Of a stretch of 38,667 bases of DNA, positions 984 to 34,191 are shown one piece after another. The DNA comes from a virus. Taxonomy: Duplodnaviria > Caudoviricetes. The stretch spans positions 1-38,667 of IMG/VR virus record IMGVR_UViG_3300043473_000126. One strand, written 5' to 3'. Within the stretch, counting starts at the first letter, position 1. Each line of letters starts with the position of its first letter. The notes beneath the pieces are model-generated. The model was not told the DNA's origin. It saw only the letters and a program-made list of their open reading frames with translations, and did not search any database. A program made the position numbers and the translations under genes.

Positions 984-1655
984 ATGAAGAAGTTCCGAAT
1001 CCTTTCTCTTGCTCTGGCCGCAGCCGCGGCAGTGCTTGCGGTCCCCGCCGCGAACGCTGTCACGCTTGGGTTCCAGGACGAGTTCAGCGGCGGTACCAAC
1101 TGCGTGAACCTCATCAGTGGTTGCTCGTTCTTGCAAGCGGAGCAGACGGCCACGGGCGTCCACTTCGAGCTGCAGGGCACGATGGCACCGGGTGAGTTCA
1201 TCACGGGGCTGTACGGGAACTACACCGGCGCACCGCTCACCATCAGCAACGTCGGCGGTACGGGGGCAGCAGCCTACCAGGGCTTCAGCTTCTCGAACGA
1301 CTCGTTCAAGGCGGACGGCGACGGGTTCTTCGACTGGAAGATCGATCTGGCCACAGCAGCGGCCAATCGCTTCAACCTGTTCGACACGCTCTCGTGGGAC
1401 TTCGTCGGCGCCTCGTTGAGCTCGTTCAACAGCCGCAGCGTCAACGGTCCGATCGACAAGAACGGCTTCCTGTTCGCCACACACGGTCAAGGACTCGTGC
1501 TCGGCGGCTCGGGCTGGTTCAAGGGTGACCTCACCCCGACGAGCACCCCCTTCGACGTGACGCCGGTTCCGGAACCCGAGACGTACGCGCTCTTTCTCGC
1601 CGGTCTCGGCGCGATGGGGATCGTGATCCGTCGCCGCAAGAACCAAGCGGCGTAA
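984..1655 (+). CDS. PEP-CTERM sorting-domain surface protein
   Basis: Signal peptide MKKFRILSLALAAAAAVLAVPAANA; G/S/T/F/D-rich body; C-terminal VPEPETYALFLAGLGAMGIVIRRRK (PEP motif + TM helix + basic tail); AGGAG RBS. Confidence 0.93.
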   Translation: MKKFRILSLALAAAAAVLAVPAANAVTLGFQDEFSGGTNCVNLISGCSFLQAEQTATGVHFELQGTMAPGEFITGLYGNYTGAPLTISNVGGTGAAAYQGFSFSNDSFKADGDGFFDWKIDLATAAANRFNLFDTLSWDFVGASLSSFNSRSVNGPIDKNGFLFATHGQGLVLGGSGWFKGDLTPTSTPFDVTPVPEPETYALFLAGLGAMGIVIRRRKNQAA

Positions 1656-2297: not shown

Positions 2298-2406
2298 ACA
2301 AATAACAGGCGAAGAAGTGGCGATGTGGATGACGCTCATCTTCTTCGCCGGTGTAGTCTGCGGCATGTGGCTTGCCCATTCCAACAAGGAAGAAGAGAAG
2401 GAATGA
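2290..2406 (+). CDS. 38-aa single-pass membrane peptide inserted between the exonuclease and polymerase genes
   Basis: MFEQITGEEVAMWMTLIFFAGVVCGMWLAHSNKEEEKE; start overlaps the exo stop and its stop overlaps the pol start (ATGA); too short for the ORF track. Confidence 0.65.
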   Translation: MFEQITGEEVAMWMTLIFFAGVVCGMWLAHSNKEEEKE

Positions 2407-3719
2407 ACCCAGAACAACTTGAAATGCGGTTGATGCCAATCGTCAACCGGATGGAACGACGTGGCATCAACCTAGATGGCCCCCGTTTGCAAACCGACAC
2501 CGACTACTACTGGGGCATCCTGGAAGAAGTTGATGAGCGGATCATGTCGAAGCTCGGCAGTCGGGTCGACGTAGACTCGAACGCAGAGCTAGTCCTGGCA
2601 CTGCAGAAGGTCGGTTACACCAGGTTCCTGTCAACGCCGAAAGGCAAGCTGTCCGTCTCCAAGGATTCCTTGATGACGGCTCTGGAAGGGGGCGATCCTG
2701 AACTACTTGGACTACTGCTCGTCAGGGGTGCCCTCGCTACCTCACTTCGGACGTTCCTACAACCATGGTCCGTGCAATACTCTCGGAATGGGCGTCTATT
2801 TCTCCGTTGGAACCAGTTCCGGAATTACACGGATACAGGAGCTCGTACGGGGCGGCTGTCATCGTCCCCTAACCTCCAGAACATCCCGGTTGAGTGGGAG
2901 GAGCTCAGGGAGCGTCTCAAGAAGATCGGTTTCGAGCTCTGGTTTGAGTTGCCATCGATTCGCCAATACATTATCCCTGACGCAGGTATGGTGTTCGTGG
3001 GGGGCGACTACAAGGCGCAGGAGATGCGACTACTCGCACACTTCAGTCAGGGCACGCTACTCGAAGCTATCAGAGCTAGGCCTCATGACGACATTCATGC
3101 CGTGGCAGCTAACATTGCCGGTGTTACTCGTCGAGTTGCCAAGACGCTCGGTTTCGCGGTCCTGTACGGAGCAGGCGTCGGGCGCATTGCTGAATCGCTT
3201 AACTGCACGGCTGAAGAAGCGGGGCGAATTAAGAACCGCTATCTCACAGCGCTTCCCGATATCAAGAAGTTCCAGAAGGCACAGACGGACATCGGGAAGA
3301 ACGGCGGTTTCGTTGAGACGCTCGGTGGCCGCAAGTACTACACCGATCCCACGGTCAAGGTAATCAATGGCCGTATCGTTGACTACAGCTACAAGCTGGT
3401 CAACTACAAGATTCAGGGCAGCGCAGCGGATCAGACGAAGCGCGCCATGATCCACTATGACGACATGGACGAAGGCGAGCTAGTCCTGTCGGTACACGAT
3501 CAGCTCGTTGCACAAGTTCCGATCGGCACCCCCTCCACGAATCTGTGTCTGGCGATGACAGAGTCCTTCCAGGAGATCTTGAGGTATCAAGTAACTGTAG
3601 ACCCTAGTCCTGAAGACTGTATGCGCTTCTCAGACATTAAGGACACGGCTGAAAAGATCAAAACAGTGCTTGGTTCTCAAGATGGTACCCAACGACCCTT
3701 CACACCACCAGAGAACTAG
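2403..3719 (+). CDS. family A DNA polymerase, polymerase domain
   Basis: TGRLSSSPNLQNIP, motif A GDYKAQEMRLLAHFS, motif B RRVAKTLGFAVLYG, NYKIQGSAAD, motif C SVHDQ; start moved to ATG 2403 (ATGA coupling). Confidence 0.92.
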   Translation: MNPEQLEMRLMPIVNRMERRGINLDGPRLQTDTDYYWGILEEVDERIMSKLGSRVDVDSNAELVLALQKVGYTRFLSTPKGKLSVSKDSLMTALEGGDPELLGLLLVRGALATSLRTFLQPWSVQYSRNGRLFLRWNQFRNYTDTGARTGRLSSSPNLQNIPVEWEELRERLKKIGFELWFELPSIRQYIIPDAGMVFVGGDYKAQEMRLLAHFSQGTLLEAIRARPHDDIHAVAANIAGVTRRVAKTLGFAVLYGAGVGRIAESLNCTAEEAGRIKNRYLTALPDIKKFQKAQTDIGKNGGFVETLGGRKYYTDPTVKVINGRIVDYSYKLVNYKIQGSAADQTKRAMIHYDDMDEGELVLSVHDQLVAQVPIGTPSTNLCLAMTESFQEILRYQVTVDPSPEDCMRFSDIKDTAEKIKTVLGSQDGTQRPFTPPEN

Positions 3720-6136: not shown

Positions 6137-6784
6137 ATGGATTTCAAAGGTTTGAGCATGTCCCAACTGATCGAGGCGTACAACGTCCTCGCCACGGAAA
6201 AGGGCGTGCCCCACGAGACCGAGTTCAAGAACCTCGCCGCAGCTCGGGCGGCAATCACTTCACTGGAGAGCAAGATGACAGACGAAACCACCACGGCAGT
6301 CGATGCCGATCCCGCGGCTGCGTCCGCTGATGGCGCCGAGAACACCGGTGCCGACGTGAGCACCACGGACTCGAAGTACTCGACCGTCGGCAAGCGTGGT
6401 CCGACGCAAGGCGTTGGCGAATTCGCCAAGCAGCTCCTCGCCGGGGGCATGCCCACCGGCGACGTCCTGACGAAGGTCCGCGAACAGTTCCCGACGGCCA
6501 AGACGAGCGCCTCGTGCATCGCCTACTACAAGGCCGCGCTGAAGAACCCGAACCTCGGCAAGCGCAAGGGCGGCGTCTCGACCGATCCCGCCGCGCTTCG
6601 CGCCAAGGCCGCGGAACTCATGGCTGCCGCGCAGGCCGCCGAAGCCGCCAACGCCGAGGCTGCCGTGAAGGCCGCCGAGGAAGCGGTTGCCAAGGCCGAG
6701 GTCGCCAAGAAGGCGGCGGAAGCAGCGCTCGCGGCGCAAGCTGCGCTCAAGGAACAGCAGGCAGCGCAAGCTCCGGCAGCCTAA
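6137..6784 (+). CDS. hypothetical protein, paralog C of the G(Q/E)F...KT..C(I/V)A(W/Y)YK domain family, with Ala-rich C-terminal helix
   Basis: AGGAGA RBS 6125-6130; GVGEFAKQLL...VREQFPTAKTSASCIAYYKAALK aligns with ORFs 29888 and 30345; very high GC3. Confidence 0.85.
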   Translation: MDFKGLSMSQLIEAYNVLATEKGVPHETEFKNLAAARAAITSLESKMTDETTTAVDADPAAASADGAENTGADVSTTDSKYSTVGKRGPTQGVGEFAKQLLAGGMPTGDVLTKVREQFPTAKTSASCIAYYKAALKNPNLGKRKGGVSTDPAALRAKAAELMAAAQAAEAANAEAAVKAAEEAVAKAEVAKKAAEAALAAQAALKEQQAAQAPAA

Positions 6785-6826: not shown

Positions 6827-7102
6827 ATGAACAAGATGCGCTATCTCGAGCTGATCAACCCAGCTATCGAGATTGTGGTAAAGAAGCACGAGGATTACGG
6901 CAATGACCGTCTCGGGCTCAAAAGCTATTTTCCGTTCGGACTCAAATCTCATATCCAGATGCTGCACATCAAAACGCAGCGCCTGGTCTCGTTGGCGCAG
7001 ACTGGTCAGGAACCGAACTTCGAGTCCGTCAAGGACACGCTGCTCGACCAGATCAACTACGCCGTCTTTCTGTTGGACGCTATCGACAAAGGCGATGTCT
7101 GA
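6827..7102 (+). CDS. nucleotide-modification-associated domain protein (Nmad1/DUF1599-like, all-alpha NTP-PPase-like)
   Basis: KKHEDYG...IKTQRL...ESVKDTLLDQINYA signature; AAGGAG RBS. Confidence 0.75.
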   Translation: MNKMRYLELINPAIEIVVKKHEDYGNDRLGLKSYFPFGLKSHIQMLHIKTQRLVSLAQTGQEPNFESVKDTLLDQINYAVFLLDAIDKGDV

Positions 7103-7932
7103 TGAGCAACTATGAACTGGATTACCTCGACCTGGTGGAAAAGGCCATCACCAAGGGTCAGTACCGCGAGTGCCGTAATGGCGAGACGCGGGCCCTCTTT
7201 GGCGAGACCCTCAGGATCGAAGAGCTCAAGTGGGATCAGTTCCCCCTCTTGACGCAACGCCGCATGTTCTACGGTGGTGTCCTCGGCGAGTTGGCGGCCT
7301 TTTTGAGGGGGGCCACCAAGCTCGGTGAGTTCCATGCGCAGGGCTGCCACTACTGGAACGAGAACGCCAAGGCATGGCCCCCTAATCAAGATAAAGGGCT
7401 AACCTTGCCGGAGATGTCGATCGGCCAGGTCTATGGCGCGCAATGGGTGAACTGGAAGCAAACCGGTTACAACCAGATCGCGGCGATCATGGACGAGCTG
7501 TATAGCAACCCACATGGTCGCAGACACGTCCTCACCTCGTTCGATCCTCTGGCCGAGGCTTGTCTGCCGCCGTGTCATCTTATGGCACAGTTCTTCGTCA
7601 ACGCAGATGGGCGTCTCGACTGCATCGTTTACATGCGCAGCGTGGACCTTATCCTTGGCCTGCCCAGCGACGTCATACTCTACGCAGCGCTCCTCACCTT
7701 GATCGCGAACTACGTAGCCATGCGTCCGGGGGTGCTCACCTTCTACATGGGCGATACCCACATCTACGAGAACCACGTGAAGATCTTCTACGATCAACAC
7801 AAGGACCGCCCAATGCACCGCGCGCCGGGCTACTCGCTTGCTGCGAACGAGGTCTTTGACTTCGTGCCGAAGCACCTCACCATCAACGACTACGAGCACT
7901 CGGCAGTCATTCAGTACCCATTCAATGTCTAA
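7102..7932 (+). CDS. thymidylate synthase homolog with dCMP-type specificity residue (putative dCMP methyl/hydroxymethyltransferase)
   Basis: FPLLT, GELAAFL, GRRH, LPPCH (catalytic Cys), YMRSVDLILGLPSD (Asp at E. coli N177 position), GDTHIYENH. Confidence 0.9.
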   Translation: MSNYELDYLDLVEKAITKGQYRECRNGETRALFGETLRIEELKWDQFPLLTQRRMFYGGVLGELAAFLRGATKLGEFHAQGCHYWNENAKAWPPNQDKGLTLPEMSIGQVYGAQWVNWKQTGYNQIAAIMDELYSNPHGRRHVLTSFDPLAEACLPPCHLMAQFFVNADGRLDCIVYMRSVDLILGLPSDVILYAALLTLIANYVAMRPGVLTFYMGDTHIYENHVKIFYDQHKDRPMHRAPGYSLAANEVFDFVPKHLTINDYEHSAVIQYPFNV

Positions 7933-8317
7933 GTCAATGTTCAAGAAGGTGGCTGACTTCCACACCGAGATCCTCGGCGTGGATGAACCGGAGATCCCGA
8001 CCTTCAACCAGCCGGAATGGATCATCGAACGCACGCGGTTCATGATGGAAGAGCTGCAGGAATTCACCTCTGCCGCGATGCAGAAGGACATGGTCGAGGC
8101 CGCCGATGGCCTAGCTGACATCGTGTACGTAGCGCTAGGCACTGCGTTCATGATGGGGCTGCCCTTCGAGAAGATCTTCGACCACGTCCACAACTGCAAC
8201 ATGCGGAAGCAGCGCGGTACCACGAGCAGGGGCAATGCGATCGACGCCATCAAGCCTGCCGGATGGGTACCCCCTAACCAGGGTATCGCAAAGATTCTGG
8301 AGGACAGTCTTGATTGA
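7925..8317 (+). CDS. MazG-like (DR2231/PRA-PH type) dNTP pyrophosphohydrolase
   Basis: VADFH...MEELQEF...EAADGLADIVYVALG...VHNCNMRK...KPAGWVPP. Confidence 0.85.
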   Translation: MSKSMFKKVADFHTEILGVDEPEIPTFNQPEWIIERTRFMMEELQEFTSAAMQKDMVEAADGLADIVYVALGTAFMMGLPFEKIFDHVHNCNMRKQRGTTSRGNAIDAIKPAGWVPPNQGIAKILEDSLD

Positions 8318-8771
8318 ACGACCCACTATCCAGCAGGTCATGCTGGGGGTCTGTGTCATCCTGGCGACGCGGGCGACCTGTAAGAAGTTACAAGTCGGCT
8401 GCGTCCTGGTTGACAAGTTTCAACGCATACTAGGAACTGGTTACAATGGCGTGGCCCGCGACCAACCTCACTGCATTGACACGGCTTGCCCTGGTGCCCT
8501 CGCTCCTAAGGGGGCCGACCTCTGCGAAGCCATCCACGCCGAGCAGAACGCGCTCCTCGTCTGCCGCAACCCAGACGACGTCTACGTCTGCTATACCACG
8601 CATGCTCCGTGCCTCCGTTGCACAAAGCTTCTTCTTAACACTGGGTGCGAGTCCATCCAATATCTTTACGGAGAAAACGGTGAACCAGCAGCCGAACGAA
8701 TCTGGCGCGCAGCCGGAAGAGATTGGTTCCGACACGACGTCAGTGGAATGGCGGGTAGTACCGGGCTATGA
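8310..8771 (+). CDS. dCMP deaminase-family Zn-dependent deaminase
   Basis: RATC..LQVGCVLV, GTGYNG, HAEQNA, PCLRC; TTG start after GGAGG 8299-8303. Confidence 0.9.
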   Translation: MIERPTIQQVMLGVCVILATRATCKKLQVGCVLVDKFQRILGTGYNGVARDQPHCIDTACPGALAPKGADLCEAIHAEQNALLVCRNPDDVYVCYTTHAPCLRCTKLLLNTGCESIQYLYGENGEPAAERIWRAAGRDWFRHDVSGMAGSTGL

Positions 8772-24674: not shown

Positions 24675-27019
24675 TAGTGCCTCGTAACTGGTTTCGGCTT
24701 CGCCGCAGCGGTAGCCTTCATGGTTTGGACCTTGACAGCGCCTTGCACCGCAGCTTGATGCGTCTTCATGCGGTGCTCGTCCATCATCTGTTGCATCTTG
24801 AACCCGTGTTCTTGACGCATCATCATCTGCTCCATCTGCATCTTCTGGAGTTCAAACTGGAGCTGCTGCTGGTTCTCCACGGAAGCGGCCTGCAGCTCCG
24901 CTTGCTTCTCCTGAATCTGCAGTTGCGCCTCCTGTTGCTTCATCTGCAGGTCCGCTTGCATCTCTTGCATCTTCATCTGATGCTCTTCCTGCATCATCTG
25001 CATTTCCATCTTGGCCTTCTCGGCCTCAGGGTCAGGCTTATCTTCGTGCGGGGGCGCCTTCAGCATGGCGTCCAGCTCCTTGTCGAGCATCCCCTCAATG
25101 TCTCGTGCACCCTTGAAGCCAGACACGGCCCATTTCAAGATACCCACGAACAAAGGCCCGGATTGGGGGGCTGACATGATCATGGGGCCGACTTTCTCGA
25201 GGTATCCGGACACAGAAGTCAGCATGTCTACTCGGTCCTGCTTCTCCATCGAGTAGTCGGTCTGCGCCAGTTGGTCGGAGGTAACCAGAATTCTCCATTC
25301 GAACCCCTCTTCGGACTGTAGAAGCTCGACGGCTTCCTGAGCCATCGCTGCGTCGTCCGTTCGCATGATGTTCGACTTGCGGATAAGTATCTCCGGGTCA
25401 AAGTGCTTGACCTGTATCTCGGCTTTAATCCGTAGGAGTTCAGAAGCAAATCGCGCAACCTCGTCCTGGGTGTCCTTGATGCGGACCGAGGCAAACTTTG
25501 CTTTGATTTCCTGAGCACCCAGCGTCTCAGATGCCTTCGAAGCACCCCGAACAATATCTGCAATGCCAGTAATTTCATAGATCTGGGCCTTAATCCCTTC
25601 CCGCGCTTCATAAAGACGCTGGAGAGCATTAACGATCTGTTCGAGGGGCAGCCAATCGACCTGACCCTTGACGCCACCCTTCTCTGCGAACATCGCCCAG
25701 TTCTCGACTGGGACCAAGACGTTGTCCACCCCCTCCTGGAGGAGGCGCTGAATACCGGTAGATGACTGGTCGTAGACGCCTGCGACCTTGCAGGCCTTGA
25801 CCAGGTTCGAGATTCTGTTGTTGACGTTGTCCAGTTCCTGATACTGGTCCTGCACCAGGTAGTAATCCGGCCTCGGAACTGTATTCGAGGTCGTAATATT
25901 GGCAAGAAGGGGCCGAGGGCACGGCTCGAAGCCGACCAGGTTCAGGAAATCGTCTTTCTCGTCGAGCAACCCCGGCAGATCTTTGCAAAACCAGATGATC
26001 TTACGATGAATCCTATCCCAGATCTCGTAGATCTTCGCTTGTTTTACAGCTTGGTTGACCGGAACAATACCACCAGGGTACGTGTTCAGGTTCAGGTTCA
26101 TTGGACGGTGGTTCAAAGGGATTTCTTTGCCCTTTTTCTCACCAAAGCGCTTGATGCACTGCGCTTGGTCCATGTACACGACGCGGCCGACCCAACGACG
26201 CTCTTCCCAGACCCTGCAGGGCGACCACAGGAAGTCCTCCCAGTACACGTAGTCAACTGCTACGCGCTGATCTGTGATCCGCTTGTACTTTAGAACGACC
26301 GGTGCTGGCGCAGCCGGCGGCTGTGGTACTGGTGGTCCAGGAGGAACGGCACCAGGAGGAACGGGACCTCCAGGAGGAGGACCACCAGGCATAGGAGGCT
26401 GCCCAGGAGGAGCCCCAGGCATAGGAGGAGCTGCGCCGGGAGCGGCCATTCCTTCGTCGGGGGCAGGTCCGGTCTTGAACCCGCTGAAGAGGGGGTCTTC
26501 GTGGTGGTCATGCGGCGGTTCCAGTCCCTCGCCTACCGATTGGATCCCTTCGAGGATGAGCTCTGTATCTTCTGTATCCGTTTCAAGACGGCACCACGCG
26601 ATCCCCAGACCAGATAGGAGTCTGTCCAGAGTAACGTGCCGCATGGTGGAGTCGAAGAGATCCCTGGGATCGTCTCCGTCGGGCATGATCGCGCGTTGGA
26701 GCATGATCGCGGCGACACGCCCGAGCTGGTCCTTGTAGTCAAGGTACTTCCTCTTCACTTCCGGCTTGGGAATCTGCGCATACAGCGCCGCCTTCATGAT
26801 CTTCGTGTTGGCGTAGAAGAGGTTGAACCACTTCTGGGGCGCGTCCATCGCGTCGCGCTCGTCGACGTACCGGCGAATGACCTTCCGGCCACGCTCGTGG
26901 AACTTCTTCAGTTCCTGCTCAGCGTAGTTTACCTCGGTCCGCCACAGCTCGTCAGGCGCGAGCTTGTTCGGATCGACGATCGTGGGGGACCCACTGTAAC
27001 TGCCGCCATCAATACTCAC
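24674..27019 (-). CDS. portal protein with Pro-rich insertion and Q/M-rich coiled-coil tail
   Basis: FNLFYAN...ALYAQIPKPEV, YEIWD, FEPCPRPL, IYEITGIADIVRGAS..SETLGAQ.IK; follows TerL. Confidence 0.88.
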   Translation of the reverse strand: MSIDGGSYSGSPTIVDPNKLAPDELWRTEVNYAEQELKKFHERGRKVIRRYVDERDAMDAPQKWFNLFYANTKIMKAALYAQIPKPEVKRKYLDYKDQLGRVAAIMLQRAIMPDGDDPRDLFDSTMRHVTLDRLLSGLGIAWCRLETDTEDTELILEGIQSVGEGLEPPHDHHEDPLFSGFKTGPAPDEGMAAPGAAPPMPGAPPGQPPMPGGPPPGGPVPPGAVPPGPPVPQPPAAPAPVVLKYKRITDQRVAVDYVYWEDFLWSPCRVWEERRWVGRVVYMDQAQCIKRFGEKKGKEIPLNHRPMNLNLNTYPGGIVPVNQAVKQAKIYEIWDRIHRKIIWFCKDLPGLLDEKDDFLNLVGFEPCPRPLLANITTSNTVPRPDYYLVQDQYQELDNVNNRISNLVKACKVAGVYDQSSTGIQRLLQEGVDNVLVPVENWAMFAEKGGVKGQVDWLPLEQIVNALQRLYEAREGIKAQIYEITGIADIVRGASKASETLGAQEIKAKFASVRIKDTQDEVARFASELLRIKAEIQVKHFDPEILIRKSNIMRTDDAAMAQEAVELLQSEEGFEWRILVTSDQLAQTDYSMEKQDRVDMLTSVSGYLEKVGPMIMSAPQSGPLFVGILKWAVSGFKGARDIEGMLDKELDAMLKAPPHEDKPDPEAEKAKMEMQMMQEEHQMKMQEMQADLQMKQQEAQLQIQEKQAELQAASVENQQQLQFELQKMQMEQMMMRQEHGFKMQQMMDEHRMKTHQAAVQGAVKVQTMKATAAAKPKPVTRH

Positions 27020-28359
27020 ATGACCCTCCGATCACCAAGCATGGCGAGCCTATCCTCATGGAGCCCCTCGAGATGAAAGGCATAGTGCATGCCCTGCTCT
27101 TTCACTCGACTCCGGTCAGACGTCTTCTTTTGCACAGATGCGTACTTCTTGTGTGCAACCACGCACATGTAACCGAATGCGTCTGCGTAGTCCGAGCACC
27201 AATCGTGGAGGGGTACGTCACTGAAGTTGAGATTCTTGTCGTCCCAGACGCGGCGATACCCCTTCAGTGCCTCAATGAGGTCCTCTGTCGAGAGCTGGTC
27301 AAACGCGACGAGGGGGAACAACTGCCGCGTGGCGGCAATGCGGTCTCGCACCTTGTGCGCAGGAACCAGTTCAGGTCTGATTCCTTCTTTAATGAACTGC
27401 TCCACCAGACTTCTACCAGTCTGGAGGTTCTTCGCTCTCGCATCGTGGGGCAGCCAGACGCTCCCCAGTTCTCCGGCGAATGAATGAAGCTTCTCGATGT
27501 GGTAGAAGATGTCCTTACCCTGGGTAGCTTCAACGTGGACAACGCGGACAGGCGACTTTCCAACAGCGTAAGAAGCTTCCTGCCAGAAGATACACACGGT
27601 AGCATCAGTGAAGCCAAGATCGAATACCACGTGTGTGGGTAGGTTCGGATCGTAAAGGCTCGCCTGAACTCGCTTAGTGAGGAAGACTTCATTGACTTCA
27701 TCCGCGTAGATGGCGCCCTTCAGGGCCGAGTCAAATGAGCAGAGGTACTCCTGGGCGAATTCCTCGGGGTCCATGTCCTTGCGAAGGTCTGCGAGCTCCT
27801 TCGGAGGAATGATGTCTGAGGTGTCTGCCCTCAGCTCGAGGTTGTACCAGGTGGGGTCGTTACGCGCGTCTTTGACGACGTCGTAGAACAGGTTCTTTCC
27901 GCGCGGGGTGGATGCAAAGACGAACCACCCATTACGGTCCGATAGTGTCGGCCGAATGACTTGTGGGAAGACGGACGGCCTAAACAGCGCGTACTCGTCA
28001 CCAACGCCTCCATCCAGGTACATTCCCCGGAGTGAATCAGCGTTGTCTGCGCCGAGGACATATAGCGTTCGGTCTCCATGCAGAGTCACCTTCAGCTCGG
28101 CCTCCTGCGGGGGCCTTGACATGTACGGTTCCGCGTAGTCCTTGAGGTACGTCCAGGCGACGCGCTTTGCTTGACTGTACGTGGGGCCAATGTACGCCAG
28201 TTGCGGCTTGTACAACTGGCACTCCAAGGCCCCGAACACCAGGTCATTCACCAGAGCGACGGTCTTCCCCGCGCGCCGATGAGTATTCAGCGCACCCCAC
28301 CGCTGAGTGCGGTTGTGGAAGGGAACGAACTGTTCCCGAGGTACGTACTTCAGGGCCAT
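27016..28359 (-). CDS. terL: terminase large subunit
   Basis: HRRAGKT Walker A, GADNADSLRG..LDG...DEY Walker B, STPRGKN, QEYLCSF, nuclease VFDLG...LPHD...SDYADAF. Confidence 0.93.
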   Translation of the reverse strand: MALKYVPREQFVPFHNRTQRWGALNTHRRAGKTVALVNDLVFGALECQLYKPQLAYIGPTYSQAKRVAWTYLKDYAEPYMSRPPQEAELKVTLHGDRTLYVLGADNADSLRGMYLDGGVGDEYALFRPSVFPQVIRPTLSDRNGWFVFASTPRGKNLFYDVVKDARNDPTWYNLELRADTSDIIPPKELADLRKDMDPEEFAQEYLCSFDSALKGAIYADEVNEVFLTKRVQASLYDPNLPTHVVFDLGFTDATVCIFWQEASYAVGKSPVRVVHVEATQGKDIFYHIEKLHSFAGELGSVWLPHDARAKNLQTGRSLVEQFIKEGIRPELVPAHKVRDRIAATRQLFPLVAFDQLSTEDLIEALKGYRRVWDDKNLNFSDVPLHDWCSDYADAFGYMCVVAHKKYASVQKKTSDRSRVKEQGMHYAFHLEGLHEDRLAMLGDRRVM

Positions 28360-28660: not shown

Positions 28661-29023
28661 TCACTCTCCTCTGACTTGCACGTCGACGACTTCGTTGTCG
28701 CCGTCGCGCTTGTAACTGAGCCGTGCGCCCGTCAACCAGGGCACGTCGATGATCACCCCATTCCCACCCTTTGGATCGTTAGCGGGGGGCAACAGTTTGC
28801 TGATCGCCTGCACGAAGACCCGGGCGTTCTGGTCGGACTTGCTTGCGAACTCGACGAGCCAGGGGGCACCCCCAAGGTTGTCGAATGCCTCACGGAACAC
28901 TTCCCGGAGCTGCTGAGTGACTCGGCGGGGGCTTGCCTCTTCCTGGAGGGACCCCGGCGGCGCTGAAAACCTGGGCGGTCCAGCTGGAATCAAGCTTGGG
29001 AGCAGTGACGGGGGCCTGTCCAT
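28661..29023 (-). CDS. putative terminase small subunit
   Basis: LREVFREAFDNLGG..WLVEFA...F...ISKLLP; first gene of the late operon, upstream of TerL. Confidence 0.7.
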   Translation of the reverse strand: MDRPPSLLPSLIPAGPPRFSAPPGSLQEEASPRRVTQQLREVFREAFDNLGGAPWLVEFASKSDQNARVFVQAISKLLPPANDPKGGNGVIIDVPWLTGARLSYKRDGDNEVVDVQVRGE

Positions 29024-29059
29024 GTTTGTAACGGAGTAGATTTAGGCGTACGTGCGACC

Positions 29060-29088
29060 ATTATACACGGTATTTTCGGACAGGGGAA
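29060..29088 (-). promoter_or_regulatory. late-operon promoter candidate
   Basis: - strand TTCCCC (29088-29083), 17 nt, TATAAT (29065-29060); same odd -35 as the + strand promoter family. Confidence 0.65.
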
Positions 29089-29092
29089 TGGC

Positions 29093-29159
29093 CCGAGGAC
29101 GTAACACTTTGTAACAGTCGTAACACTGGTAATAATTTCGGCCGAAAGTGCGTTATAAT
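29093..29159 (+). promoter_or_regulatory. promoter with tandem GTAAC boxes, divergent from the late promoter
   Basis: CCGAGGAC then GTAAC at 29101, 29111, 29120 and GTAAT at 29129; TGCGT-TATAAT at 29154-29159. Confidence 0.65.
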
Positions 29160-29178
29160 GGTATTTTACGGAGGCCAC

Positions 29179-29655
29179 ATGGCAACACAGAAGCAGATAG
29201 ACGCGTGCATCGAGTACATTTTGGAAAACAGCTTTGTTGTACAGGAAACTGGATGTTGGGTTTGGCAGAAATTCACAGACAAAGGCTACGGCTATGGTTA
29301 CGGGCGTGCAGAGGGCTTTGTAGAAAGGCTCGCGCATAGGCTTGCCTACGGAGTATTTGAGTTTTCGCAGCAGGGCGGGGAGCTGCCTGAGGGGGCCCGA
29401 CTGCGGCAGAAATGTAGGAACCATGCTTGTTGCAATCCGAAGCATCAGGACCTTAGTTTGCCACGGCCGAAAACGTGTATAAAGCCCCAAGAAAACGGGC
29501 CTGATGAAACGGCTAGGCCCCCCGGCCGAAATGCGGCCACGGCTGCCGACGTTTATTATAAGGCATCAATTTCGCACGGGCCGTCGGGCTCGTCCGACGA
29601 GCCGGGGTTGACTTGGGAAGAAGTGTTCGCGGCGTTCTTTACACGAGGTAAATGA
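29179..29655 (+). CDS. HNH/His-Cys-box nuclease-like protein, apparently degenerate
   Basis: GCWVW...GYG...LAHRLAY...LRQKCRNHACCNPKH; GGAGG RBS. Confidence 0.75.
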   Translation: MATQKQIDACIEYILENSFVVQETGCWVWQKFTDKGYGYGYGRAEGFVERLAHRLAYGVFEFSQQGGELPEGARLRQKCRNHACCNPKHQDLSLPRPKTCIKPQENGPDETARPPGRNAATAADVYYKASISHGPSGSSDEPGLTWEEVFAAFFTRGK

Positions 29656-29688
29656 CTGGTAGCGGAAATTGAAAAATTCTATGTGCGC

Positions 29689-29737
29689 GGTGGGGCCCCA
29701 CCAGCCCGACCCCCCAGTCTCCCTTTCCCTTTCTCGA
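29689..29737. other. candidate packaging/terminus signal: 14-bp palindrome + C-tract array
   Basis: GGTGGGGCCCCACC (29689-29702) then CCC/CCCCCC/CCC/CCC tracts, near terS at the start of the early region. Confidence 0.4.
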
Positions 29738-29887
29738 GTTACATTTGGTTGCATTCGTGACACTCTATTAACAATTGTAGAACACAGTTACAAATATTCA
29801 ATACATAATATCTTCATACTGTGAATAAACAAGTATGTCACTTGAATCACAGTATGAATGTGTAAAACTTGTAAAGATTGCAACATC

Positions 29888-30112
29888 ATGAACATTGGTC
29901 AATTCATTACTTACATGATCTTGAACAGCAACAAGAGCAACAGTGAGATTCTGCAACTTGTGCATGAAAAGTTTGAAGGTTGTAAAACTTCTGCAGCATG
30001 TGTTGCATGGTACAAGAGCAAGTTGAGGAAGGAAGGCAAGATTGAGAAGAGCAGAACACAGAAGTTCTCTGTTGCACTCAGTGAAGAAGAGTTGCAACAG
30101 CTGTGTGAGTAA
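29888..30112 (+). CDS. 74-aa protein, paralog A, encoded without CC or CG dinucleotides
   Basis: MNIGQFITYMILNSNKSNSEILQLVHEKFEGCKTSAACVAWYKSKLRKEG...; clear alignment to ORF 30345; own terminator. Confidence 0.85.
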   Translation: MNIGQFITYMILNSNKSNSEILQLVHEKFEGCKTSAACVAWYKSKLRKEGKIEKSRTQKFSVALSEEELQQLCE

Positions 30113-30120
30113 CAGATAGC

Positions 30121-30154
30121 AAAGAGTGCAACAGAAATGTTGCACTCTTTTTTT
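30121..30154 (+). terminator. intrinsic terminator lacking CC/GG/CG
   Basis: AAAGAGTGCAACA-GAAA-TGTTGCACTCTTT-TTTT, perfect 13-bp stem. Confidence 0.88.
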
Positions 30155-30235
30155 GACAGTTCAGGTTGGGCGGATTGGTCAGTCCCGGGATGAGGGACCC
30201 GGTGGGGCTCGTAGATCTTCGAACCCAGTTCAATT

Positions 30236-30344: not shown

Positions 30345-30743
30345 ATGAGCAAGAAGTACCAGGAACAACAAGCCCAGAACGAACTGCCGGAAGGGGGCGA
30401 TCAGGCGACCCAGAGCGATACGGGGGCCGATACCTCGGTCGAGCAGAGCACGGAGAGCGAAGTGCAAAGCTCGGAAGCCCCGGACGAAGTGCCAAGCACG
30501 GAGACCAAGGCGATCGGCATCGGCCAGTTCGTGCGGCATCTCTTGATGCACAGCACGAAGAGCAACTCGGAAATCCTCGAGCTGGTTCTCAAGACCTTCG
30601 AGGGCAGCAAGACGACGCCGGCGTGCATTGCGTGGTACAAGACGGACCTCCGGAAGAAGGGGCTGCTTGATGGCCTGAACCAGCGCGGCAAGAACAAGAC
30701 CGTGGCGTTCAGTGCCGAGGAGCTCGAGGCGCTCTGCAAGTAA
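30345..30743 (+). CDS. paralog B: acidic disordered N-terminus + shared helical domain
   Basis: GIGQFVRHLLMHSTKSNSEILELVLKTFEGSKTTPACIAWYKTDLRKKG...VAFSAEELEALCK; GC-rich codons. Confidence 0.88.
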   Translation: MSKKYQEQQAQNELPEGGDQATQSDTGADTSVEQSTESEVQSSEAPDEVPSTETKAIGIGQFVRHLLMHSTKSNSEILELVLKTFEGSKTTPACIAWYKTDLRKKGLLDGLNQRGKNKTVAFSAEELEALCK

Positions 30744-30772: not shown

Positions 30773-30960
30773 ATACTTGTTCATTAATTGAAGAGTATAA
30801 AAAAGGTCAGCTGATACGACGAACAATGTGCGTGTGTGTCGGCCGTTATTGCACAAACACGTCGAATCTATCCTTTATATATTATACTGGTAACATTTTA
30901 AATTATTAACTTTAAATGTGATCACACACATCACACATACACAAAGTATATTGAACTCTG
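30765..30960. other. AT-rich non-coding region with inverted repeat and TGTG/CACA runs (origin candidate)
   Basis: CCTTTTTTATACT/AGTATAAAAAAGG 13-bp IR; AT tract ~30865-30920; CACACACATCACACATACACA. Confidence 0.35.
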
Positions 30961-31049: not shown

Positions 31050-31274
31050 ATGATTGATAAGCTACCGCAGAAGACATGGCAGGGCAAAGTCCCCGCAATG
31101 TGCGAGATGTCTGGTGAGGAGATCACAGATCGATTCATCGATGGATGCAATCGGGCAGGTCAATGGTGTATCATGTCCCCTACGGGCCACATGCAATATG
31201 GACGTGGTCTGGGCGTCGGTAAGGGCCAAGAGTACACGAAAGTGCACGGAAAGTGGGTGAAGACACGTGGATAA
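31050..31274 (+). CDS. conserved small phage protein
   Basis: FIDG...GQWCIM...GRGLGVGKGQEY motif; GAGGA RBS. Confidence 0.75.
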   Translation: MIDKLPQKTWQGKVPAMCEMSGEEITDRFIDGCNRAGQWCIMSPTGHMQYGRGLGVGKGQEYTKVHGKWVKTRG

Positions 31275-31446
31275 CCAAGAACAGTCGGCCCCCCTCAACG
31301 CGATGCAGAGCATCAAAGACGAAGGGTACAGAGCGCAAGCTCAAGGCAAGGTCATGAGCCTGGACAACCCGTACCGGCAGAGCGACCCAGCGCATTGGGC
31401 TTGGAGAAGCGGTTTTATCGAAGCATGGAGAGATGCAAATGGCTGA
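31267..31446 (+). CDS. Rmf/CrpP-fold-like small protein
   Basis: 59-aa GTG-start ORF with EGYRAQAQG...DNPY...WAWRSGFIEAW; overlaps both neighbours; not in the ORF track. Confidence 0.6.
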   Translation: MDNQEQSAPLNAMQSIKDEGYRAQAQGKVMSLDNPYRQSDPAHWAWRSGFIEAWRDANG

Positions 31447-31857: not shown

Positions 31858-32061
31858 ATGCCGCACATGGAGCTTCAAGTGAACCAAGTCAAACAGTCTA
31901 AACCTGTGTCCCAAATGAGTAAGATGGAGATGGAAGAGAAGATCAAGGGATACAAGTTTGTACTGTTCAAATTGCATAAGGAGATCTCGGAAAGAGACGA
32001 AGAGATAGCGAGACTTAATCAACTTCTAGAAAGGAAGAAGCGCAATGAGATTGGAACATGA
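31858..32061 (+). CDS. small coiled-coil protein (start uncertain)
   Basis: EISERDEEIARLNQLLE heptads; directly after the promoter. Confidence 0.55.
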   Translation: MPHMELQVNQVKQSKPVSQMSKMEMEEKIKGYKFVLFKLHKEISERDEEIARLNQLLERKKRNEIGT

Positions 32062-33473: not shown

Positions 33474-33640
33474 GCTCCAAAGACCCGAACAGGATCATCG
33501 AGCGCATCGAGAAGCTCCTGGCAATGGCGCGCAGTGCTATTGACGAAGCCGAGGCAATCGCTGATTGTCCAGATGAGCCACTGCGCATCCAGCGAGAAGC
33601 TAGAAAGCTGATGGACAAGTTCTACGAGGATCAGCTATGA
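33470..33640 (+). CDS. DUF2786-like helical protein
   Basis: IIERIEKLLAMARS...EAE...ARKLMDK. Confidence 0.55.
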   Translation: MSSKDPNRIIERIEKLLAMARSAIDEAEAIADCPDEPLRIQREARKLMDKFYEDQL

Positions 33641-34191
33641 AACCTGACTTCAAGGACTTGTACGAGTTCCTAGAGTGTGCGCCGAGACCTTGGTACATCC
33701 TGGTGGTTGGCGCGCCTGGCAGTGGTAAGAGCACGTTGTGCAAGGCGCTGCTAGGGACGTACACCAAGCTGCACCGGTTCAGCACGGACGACAAGCTCGA
33801 GCTCATTGCCCTTCGCAGATACGGCACGAAGACACTCAAGGAATCGCAGTTCGCAAAGGTCCCCTTCGGCGAGCTAATCCGGGAAATGAAGTTCAACATC
33901 TGGCAGATGGCGAACATGGGGGAGTCCATTCTGATCGACCAGACCTCCATGAGCGTCGAGTCTAGGGTTAGGAAGTTGGCGTGGTCACCCCCGCGATTCA
34001 CAAAGATCTGCATTGACTTGCATGGTCTTACGGCTGATCAATGCTTCAGGCGCGTCGAGCAACGAGTTCGAGACAAGGGCCGGTTCATTCCTAAGCATGT
34101 TATTGAAGACATGCTCAAGAAGTACGAACAGCCCAGCGTAGACGAAGGTTTCAACCTGATCTACAGACTCGATCAATCTGTAGGTGTGTAA
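33637..34191 (+). CDS. P-loop kinase (AAA_33 / polynucleotide-kinase-like)
   Basis: LVVGAPGSGKST, STDD, ILIDQT, R..R...IP..VI..M...YE.P...EGF. Confidence 0.85.
   Translation: MKPDFKDLYEFLECAPRPWYILVVGAPGSGKSTLCKALLGTYTKLHRFSTDDKLELIALRRYGTKTLKESQFAKVPFGELIREMKFNIWQMANMGESILIDQTSMSVESRVRKLAWSPPRFTKICIDLHGLTADQCFRRVEQRVRDKGRFIPKHVIEDMLKKYEQPSVDEGFNLIYRLDQSVGV

Follow-up and report, generated by a model that had tools for sequence, protein, structure and literature searches.

The window, by which we mean the whole stretch of DNA analyzed here, is an entire soil phage record of 38,667 bp with a GC content of 56.5%, for which no DNA-level relative was found among cultured phages. The gene of interest, gene A (29888-30112, plus strand), encodes a 74-residue protein predicted to form a three-helix helix-turn-helix (HTH) domain followed by a basic tail. 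An alternative in-frame ATG at 29858 would yield 84 residues; since the homologues begin with MNIGQ, the ATG at 29888 is the most likely start. A probable -10 box, CATAAT, is located at 29804-29809 (plus strand) without a canonical -35 box and was missed by a two-hexamer promoter scan, and all 18 gene A alleles checked have a (C/T)ATAAT box at 66-108 bp before the start. Downstream, positions 30121-30154 (plus strand) hold a hairpin resembling an intrinsic terminator, with 13 pairs, a GAAA loop and a subsequent T run.

The genes for the terminase large subunit (27016-28359) and the presumed small subunit (28661-29023; named by position, with no family match) are both on the minus strand, their transcription leading away from gene A. 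An HNH endonuclease gene (29158-29655, plus strand), missing in most relatives, separates the small terminase from the gene A unit; in relatives without it, the rightward block starts with gene A, which, in the window and in three distant loci (L081, L099 and L115), is also the first to point away from the terminase. The left flank of the unit (29655-29729, plus strand) consists of a 32-bp box, ACTGGTAGCGGAAATTGAAAAATTCTATGTGC, followed by a GC-rich stretch rich in CC and CG. The box occupies 29655-29686 in the window and recurs in L001 (4801-4832), L002 (1890-1921) and L044 (3001-3021); it is identical in two relatives, though the flanks of these relatives differ. Box and stretch together represent a candidate terminus or packaging signal. 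In close relatives, TG(T/C)AAC and CGTAAC words cluster at the terminase-gene A junction, at up to 17 per 500 bp, with clusters at 29027-29119 and 29738-30235 in the window, at 3960-4180 in L084 and at 7000-7500 in G004; these words are possible binding sites for the HTH proteins or the terminase. The TGCAAC repeats within gene A, five in the window versus 0-3 in other alleles, are window-specific and probably a by-product.

Two paralogs share the HTH domain of gene A. Paralog B (30345-30743, plus strand; 132 residues) combines it with an acidic N-terminus, and paralog C (6137-6784, plus strand) with an Ala/Lys-rich tail. The latter is situated just upstream of a cytosine-modification cluster, as in phage Xp12. 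This cluster (6827-8771, plus strand), a likely 5-methylcytosine (5mC) pathway, encodes a DUF1599 protein, a thymidylate synthase homologue, a MazG-like pyrophosphohydrolase and a dCMP deaminase homologue, and a P-loop kinase of the AAA_33 type (33637-34191, plus strand) is possibly a modified-dCMP kinase. DNA polymerase A is split into a 3'-5' exonuclease gene (1743-2297) and a polymerase gene (2325-3719), likewise in relatives, and an early ORF of 59 residues (31267-31446) bears a weak resemblance, below the cut-off, to ribosome modulation factor (Pfam RMF, E 1e-4). A gene for a PEP-CTERM surface protein with a signal-peptide-like start (984-1655, plus strand; 118-771 in G001) hints at an exosortase-bearing Gram-negative host.

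A first, sequence-only reading had placed gene A beside a probable genome end, which does not correspond to any observation: contigs from three runs pass through the region without an end, their depths being flat per contig and uninformative on ends, and no terminal repeat was found in the record. Neither records nor literature provided mapped termini for the terminase relatives (P26218, HTVC010P-type and OH, at most 36% identity). X4 record 29 was considered as a relative lacking gene A and rejected, as its region is only ~425 bp shorter, a difference explained by loss of the HNH gene. In the JWX record, the first genes are repeated at its end (L147, 1-3300 and 46400-49714), and this terminal repeat holds an HTH-domain gene together with the highest-scoring CG-free run of JWX (168 bp).

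Composition and borders of the CC/CG-free island

The gene A unit lies within a run of 415 bp devoid of CC and CG (29757-30171, an unstranded feature), which begins ~47 bp before the -10 box and ends shortly after the terminator, so that its borders coincide with the promoter and terminator of a single promoter-gene-terminator unit. The runner-up in the 38.7-kb genome measures 89 bp. The hand count of the sequence-only reading, a unit of ~400 bp lacking both dinucleotides where about 23 were expected, is confirmed for positions 29758-30163, which contain 64 C and 84 G, no CC (10.1 expected) and no CG (13.2 expected). GG occurs 6 times (17.4 expected), four of them forced by Gly or Trp codons, and GC is present 17 times (13.2 expected), CA 46 times (23.3 expected) and TG 40 times (22.8 expected). 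Other details of that reading were equally accurate: the protein has no Pro, uses only AGA or AGG for Arg and only GCA for Ala, and the 13 pairs of the terminator stem are free of CC, GG and CG. CG/CC-rich DNA lies directly to the left of the island promoter, and paralog B downstream has an ordinary composition, with observed/expected values of 23/29 for CC and 38/36 for CG.

The argument that low GC does not explain the pattern, made on the grounds that GC steps are tolerated, also stands, given that zero CC plus CG was reached in none of 20,000 base shuffles of the island, whose minimum was 10 against ~23 expected. With the protein held fixed, CG was never eliminated in 3,000 random synonymous codings under each of two codon models, whereas CC reached zero with P values of 0.0013 and 0.016, which identifies CG as the strong signal of the island; six or fewer GG had P values of 0.013 and 0.009. 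The absence of CC and CG is thus not accounted for by GC content or by protein sequence. Other AT-rich segments of the genome might have been equally depleted, as the sequence-only reading had allowed; the island unit is the most AT-rich 400 bp, and no 400-bp window with GC ≤ 0.43 exists elsewhere, so the genome offers no internal control of the same GC content. Contigs from three soil runs, one of which (X1) is possibly the source of the record itself, span the island with no differing letters, and the island is therefore not an assembly error. Runs X4-X11, which contain small shares, contribute no evidence here.

The 89-bp run, at 30860-30960, is AT-rich with (CA)n-like repeats and lies upstream of the next early genes; similar runs occur in relatives. 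A small early gene for a coiled-coil-like protein (31858-32061) is likewise CG-poor, with observed/expected values of 0.23-0.6 including its orthologues in G001, G005 and L019, and these orthologues are CG-poor even in phages whose gene A is CG-rich.

The predicted 5mC genome and the HTH family

That the genome contains modified cytosine, as had been predicted, is likely. The window's synthase carries Asp at E. coli position 177, with GLPSD aligning with the canonical GVPFN and with GLPYD of Xp12, and a dCMP deaminase homologue and a nucleotide pyrophosphohydrolase adjoin it. According to the accessible text of PMC8670742, Asp at the Asn177 position marks contigs with modified C; the available part of bioRxiv 2024.12.05.627091 reports that five of seven Asp-type synthases produced 5mdCMP and proposes the deaminases beside such synthases as a source of dT. 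With this Xp12-type gene cluster and its Asp-177 synthase, the phage genome likely carries 5mC in place of C; as the synthase is only 25% identical to that of Xp12, the base may instead be 5hmC or a further-modified one. No glycosyl- or carbamoyltransferase was found among the 27 and 25 ORFs scanned, a subset of all ORFs.

Xp12 (MT664984), as described in the accessible text of PMC7653180 and bioRxiv 2024.12.05.627091, resembles the window in its Asp-type synthase next to a pyrophosphohydrolase and a dCMP deaminase homologue; in both phages an HTH gene precedes the modification cluster and several HTH copies are present. Despite these likenesses, the Xp12 synthase has Pro after the catalytic Cys where the window's keeps His, and Xp12, a 64-kb phage without an island, carries HTH copies in a MuF-ADP-ribosyltransferase head protein. 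This head-associated protein of 1,192 residues (L046, 12154-15732) includes two or more HTH copies. Similar proteins join HTH repeats to MuF and an ADP-ribosyltransferase domain, so the HTH domain may be delivered with the DNA.

The structural model of gene A (pLDDT 90.8) consists of three helices, a basic linker and a short last helix, with no strand and with residues 51-60 at pLDDT 72, and the protein presumably binds DNA. Its structural matches are generic HTH folds, none of which singles out a methyl reader. In VIA-align the best Z is 5.4, and DpnI (Z 5.0, rmsd 2.7, 56 residues aligned) ties with unrelated HTHs; the match to Mrr_N is weak (E 0.055), and the top viral matches belong to RDJL Phi 1, Xp12, Xoo-sp2 and JWX. 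Foldseek searches of PDB and BFVD returned no match at E ≤ 0.001, which is uninformative as an absence. Gene A has no named family in Pfam, PHROGs or NCBIfam; the Atlas yielded nothing beyond unnamed viral clusters below 0.9, and Rfam no match. Winged-helix modification sensors such as DpnI and fusion endonucleases, as presented in the accessible text of PMC11037411, are likewise small helical DNA-binding domains that are sometimes fused to nucleases; they differ in sensing 6mA in ApT and in having a wing, whereas the gene A model has no strand.

At E ≤ 0.001, gene A has 650 representative homologues, and 52 homologues are close. Among 50,697 cultured phage records, 72 match gene A (E ≤ 1) and 74 match the Xp12 synthase (E ≤ 1e-40), with nearly equal genus tallies among the matches listed (40 of the 72 and 60 of the 74). 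Profile searches detected the domain in all five cultured Xp12-synthase phages tested, with six copies in Xp12, three each in JWX, RDJL Phi 1 and ART, and two in Tedan. The same searches found none in four T-modifying relatives, namely M6, PaMx11, YuA and ZC01, the last two of which we take to be T-modifying. For M6 and PaMx11, T modification is reported in the accessible text of PMC6449724 and PMC11472151. Similarly, in each of the 14 viral loci that combine the domain with a synthase motif in the fetched flank, the diagnostic residue is Asp, although the search pattern allowed Asn. KF-1 and MW202744 have an Asp synthase and lack the HTH domain. By these comparisons, the HTH family follows the modified-C pathway across phages. 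We found no relative with gene A and without an Asp synthase, so no control is available for linking the island to 5mC.

Head proteins of the MuF-ADP-ribosyltransferase type and proteins with Lys/Ala-rich tails contain the domain as well. Only two fusions, with the domain ahead of a NucS C-terminal nuclease, were found, both on cellular-looking contigs (L042, 274-948, and L141, 5729-6430), one of which is a Phycisphaerae MAG; the HTH-NucS_C fusion is a candidate 5mC-dependent restriction enzyme.

Gene A alleles and distant loci

From 42 loci we retained 21 gene A alleles, leaving out duplicates or near-copies (L001, L002, L007-L009, L019, L025, L027, L028 and L030), a fragment (L034) and paralog-B-like or distant matches (L012-L014 and L035-L042). 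CG counts per allele are bimodal, with 0-2 in eight alleles and 7-21 in 13. When promoter and gene are pooled, seven CG-free alleles have observed/expected values of 6/58 for CC, 61/124 for GG, 97/85 for GC and 3/85 for CG, the last being low by definition of the group, while eight CG-rich alleles have 14/74, 83/151, 103/104 and 119/104, respectively. Because the scarcity of CC and GG is common to both groups, CG is the trait that switches. The earlier proposal that a cytosine context had been purged, and that homologous loci would be depleted too, therefore requires division: the depletion is real, looks selected and extends, for CC and GG, to all close alleles, but CG is normal in 13 of the 21. 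In the promoter region, all four G/C-only steps are low in both allele classes, with no CC against 33 expected. Depletion of GNC in the alleles is weak (GAC/GTC 48 versus 70).

On the protein tree of gene A, which is weakly supported (2 of 17 branches starred), the CG-free state requires ~5 changes, and a topology test rules against a single CG-free clade (p-AU 5e-5). Across 9.4 kb of structural genes, the CG-rich G001 and the CG-free G005 share 93.5% identity. Among the genes listed, no accessory gene dividing CG-free from CG-rich genomes was seen by eye. Between the window and L015, 19 codons show synonymous differences, none of which creates CG or CC (P ~0.001, given that 30% of possible changes would create them); similarly, L006 and L032 keep zero CG through 18 synonymous differences, and two other pairs include an allele with 1-2 CG. 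At 48 same-residue sites with CG in a CG-rich allele, a comparison in which the direction of change is not fixed, the counterpart is TG or CA at 21 and CT, AG, GC or another word at 27; these 27, being neither TG nor CA, are not deamination products. Loss of the C-G pair closing the terminator loop was considered as a CG-free trait and rejected, since three CG-free alleles retain it and the CG-rich L021 and L024 lack it.

For the distant comparison, 62 viral loci were dereplicated to 52 and runs were scored by adjusted expectation. At scores of at least 9, five CG-free runs lie within 300 bp of the domain gene, a region comprising 12% of the bases, and none elsewhere; as two of the five are close alleles already counted, only three are new. 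At scores of at least 7, there are 11 near the domain gene and 14 elsewhere, and control runs for GC at 9 or above number two near and four far. The run of L099 (957 bp) covers the promoter and two genes, with CG returning gradually; that of L115 (379 bp) covers the promoter and two-thirds of the gene; and that of L081 (638 bp), below the score cut-off, covers the whole unit. All three adjoin the terminase. The run of L084 covers the last part of the HTH gene and the gene after it, leaving the promoter outside. L099, L115 and L084 exclude CG only, L081 is also low in CC and GG, and CC is at expectation in the distant CG-only islands (63/63).

No comparable run is present in Xp12, JWX, RDJL Phi 1, KF-1, P26218, OH or Mvi-Yong1342-1, whose best scores are 5-7.5 versus 13.7. 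The first four have an Asp synthase and no island, and the CG-rich G001 has the same Asp synthase as the window; together, Xp12, JWX, RDJL Phi 1 and G001 imply that 5mC alone is not sufficient for an island. In podophage MW202744 (L067, 40003-40861), AT-rich, CG-poor DNA with small genes follows directly after the terminase, a weak signal. Since the CG-free state is scattered on the tree, kept through synonymous change and recurrent in distant phages, selection likely keeps the island CG-free.

Possible causes of the island

The explanation that we prefer, though tentatively, is that a host sensor of mCG or CmC finds no site in the first-read unit until protein A shields the genome. A genome with 5mC in place of C would be exposed to such a sensor of methylated CG or CC; the gene A unit, likely the first to be read, would offer it no site, lacking both words; and the predicted HTH protein, once made, would cover or compete for mCG and CC sites elsewhere. 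We infer 5mC in the virion, early expression of gene A and DNA binding by its product, while the identity of the sensor and the shielding are guesses. McrA/PsuGI-like enzymes for mCG and LpnPI-like enzymes for CmC are conjectural candidates, acting either as a cutter or as a transcription block. A cutter would require that a genome end lie beside the promoter and that entry pause, as otherwise the rest of the genome would be destroyed; a reversible block would need neither and would better fit borders that run from promoter to terminator. CG-rich alleles would suit hosts without an mCG sensor, and the scarcity of CC and GG in all close alleles would reflect a commoner pressure.

The island was scanned for enzyme sites as if every C were methylated, with specificities for GlaI, RlaI, SgrTI and SauUSI that we assumed. 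No McrA, PsuGI, GlaI or LpnPI sites are present, and those of McrA, PsuGI and LpnPI occur at 34-69 per kb genome-wide; six FspEI (minus strand), 61 MspJI and 94 McrBC sites remain, and AspBHI and RlaI sites are also present. The earlier idea of hiding from modification-dependent enzymes thus survives for McrA and LpnPI and not for FspEI. The specificities (Y)mCGR for McrA, BBmCGD for PsuGI, CmCDG for LpnPI and CmC for FspEI follow the accessible text of PMC6212794, PMC12707154 and PMC7653180. These Type IV nucleases have in their sites the words missing from the island, although none reads every mCG and FspEI sites persist. A TagI-like preference for mC followed by C or G was dropped as a match, as the portions of the literature available did not bear it out. 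Glycosylase defenses against modified C exist and, in the accessible text of bioRxiv 2026.02.25.707755, are shown for 5hmC.

Escape from a host sensor is favored by the match of the island borders to promoter and terminator, the bimodal CG counts among the 21 alleles, the place of gene A as the first gene pointing away from the terminase, the presence of the HTH domain in five of five Xp12-synthase phages and none of four T-modifying relatives, and the two proteins that fuse it to a NucS-type nuclease. Xp12 DNA is cut in vitro by FspEI, LpnPI and MspJI (accessible text of PMC7653180), which points the same way, as does the precedent of site-free leading regions, proven for Type I restriction, where only the first-injected sites decide; this rule would not hold for headful packagers (accessible text of PMC12455610). 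The systems of that account, Murciavirus with the Type I enzyme Mme2I, T5 first-step transfer and T7 gene 0.3, resemble the island in a target missing early and common elsewhere, a small early gene possibly countering defense, and alleles that vary among close relatives. They concern a long unmodified site of a known enzyme, whereas the island lacks a two-base and probably methylated word, cleared from promoter, codons and terminator alike. Against the sensor stand the contigs that traverse the region without an end and the CG/CC-rich DNA left of the promoter; the 13 CG-rich alleles and the island-free Xp12, JWX, RDJL Phi 1 and KF-1; the FspEI, MspJI, McrBC, AspBHI and RlaI sites in the island; the L084 run, which misses the promoter, and the L115 run, which stops two-thirds through the gene; and the lack of a structural match that singles out a methyl reader.

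An unlikely alternative is that the HTH proteins A, B and C themselves form a chromatin-like coat or timer on the genome by binding methylated CG and CC, and that gene A, being site-free, escapes silencing by the protein it encodes, as a CpG island in reverse. The family tracks Asp-type synthases, most genomes have 2-6 copies, many members have Lys/Ala-rich tails, and a transcription unit accounts for the island borders better than distance from an end does. However, CG-free and CG-rich alleles share the predicted recognition helix (SMACVAWYKSK in both L022 and L004, for instance) and are up to 86% identical, the Xp12 copies lie in CG-normal genes, and the L084 run mostly covers a different gene.

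We also consider improbable a methylation-independent host factor acting on CG in early DNA or RNA, such as a short-site nuclease, an ADP-ribosyltransferase or a silencer, with the 5mC pathway being coincidental. It would agree with the insufficiency of 5mC and with the distant islands that exclude CG only, but a phage with 5mC for every C would present mCG to any reader of CG. Enzymes reading mCG are known, and we know of no two-base defense directed at unmodified CG. A pure RNA target is countered by the depletion of the untranscribed part of the promoter and of coding-strand GG.

A physical cause seems distinctly unlikely, namely that methylated CG and CC steps stiffen or stabilize the duplex and are dropped from the unit transcribed fastest by an unmodified host polymerase. 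The borders do follow the path of the polymerase, and the promoter region is low in all four G/C-only steps in both allele classes, yet GC steps are retained in CG-free alleles (97/85), CG-rich alleles and paralog B occur in phages with the same pathway, and a physical cost should be graded where CG counts are bimodal. The related suggestion of the sequence-only reading, that depletion keeps the gene readable by host RNA polymerase, is weakened: no phage RNA polymerase was found among the ORFs scanned (the same subset of 27 and 25), so the host polymerase presumably reads CG-rich genes too, which argues against plain unreadability. An origin without selection, through 5mC deamination at the locus or import from a phage that is AT-rich and CG-poor, is very unlikely and was already disfavored, for although CA and TG are at about twice expectation, TG or CA makes up 21 of the 48 replacements and no other 400 bp of the genome is as AT-rich as the unit, the other 27 replacements are CT, AG, GC or other words, the CG-free state has several origins and its zero is kept across 18-19 synonymous differences, and whole-genome 5mC would presumably not limit deamination to CG or to 415 bp.

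If escape from a host sensor is extended to the whole family, phages with fully methylated genomes would protect their DNA against methyl-directed defense with a hitherto undescribed HTH family that reads methyl-cytosine, and the gene of the first-made copy would be CpG-free, and so able to work ahead of the shield, selected and allele-switchable; we regard this broader proposition as possible and rather doubtful. A search of titles and abstract openings, with subscription papers outside its scope, found no publication describing either the HTH family or a 5mC phage whose first gene lacks a dinucleotide.

The island is real and likely selected. Replacing C with 5mC guards a phage against most Type II enzymes at the price of exposure to methyl-directed ones. 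This locus offers a small protein family that accompanies the 5mC pathway in unrelated phages, as well as natural pairs of alleles distinguished by a single dinucleotide rule. Should the proposed reading be true, site avoidance in leading DNA would extend to a modified two-base word, and the island would point to the specificity of a host sensor (mCG, CmC) and to a possible 5mC-binding module of 74 residues.
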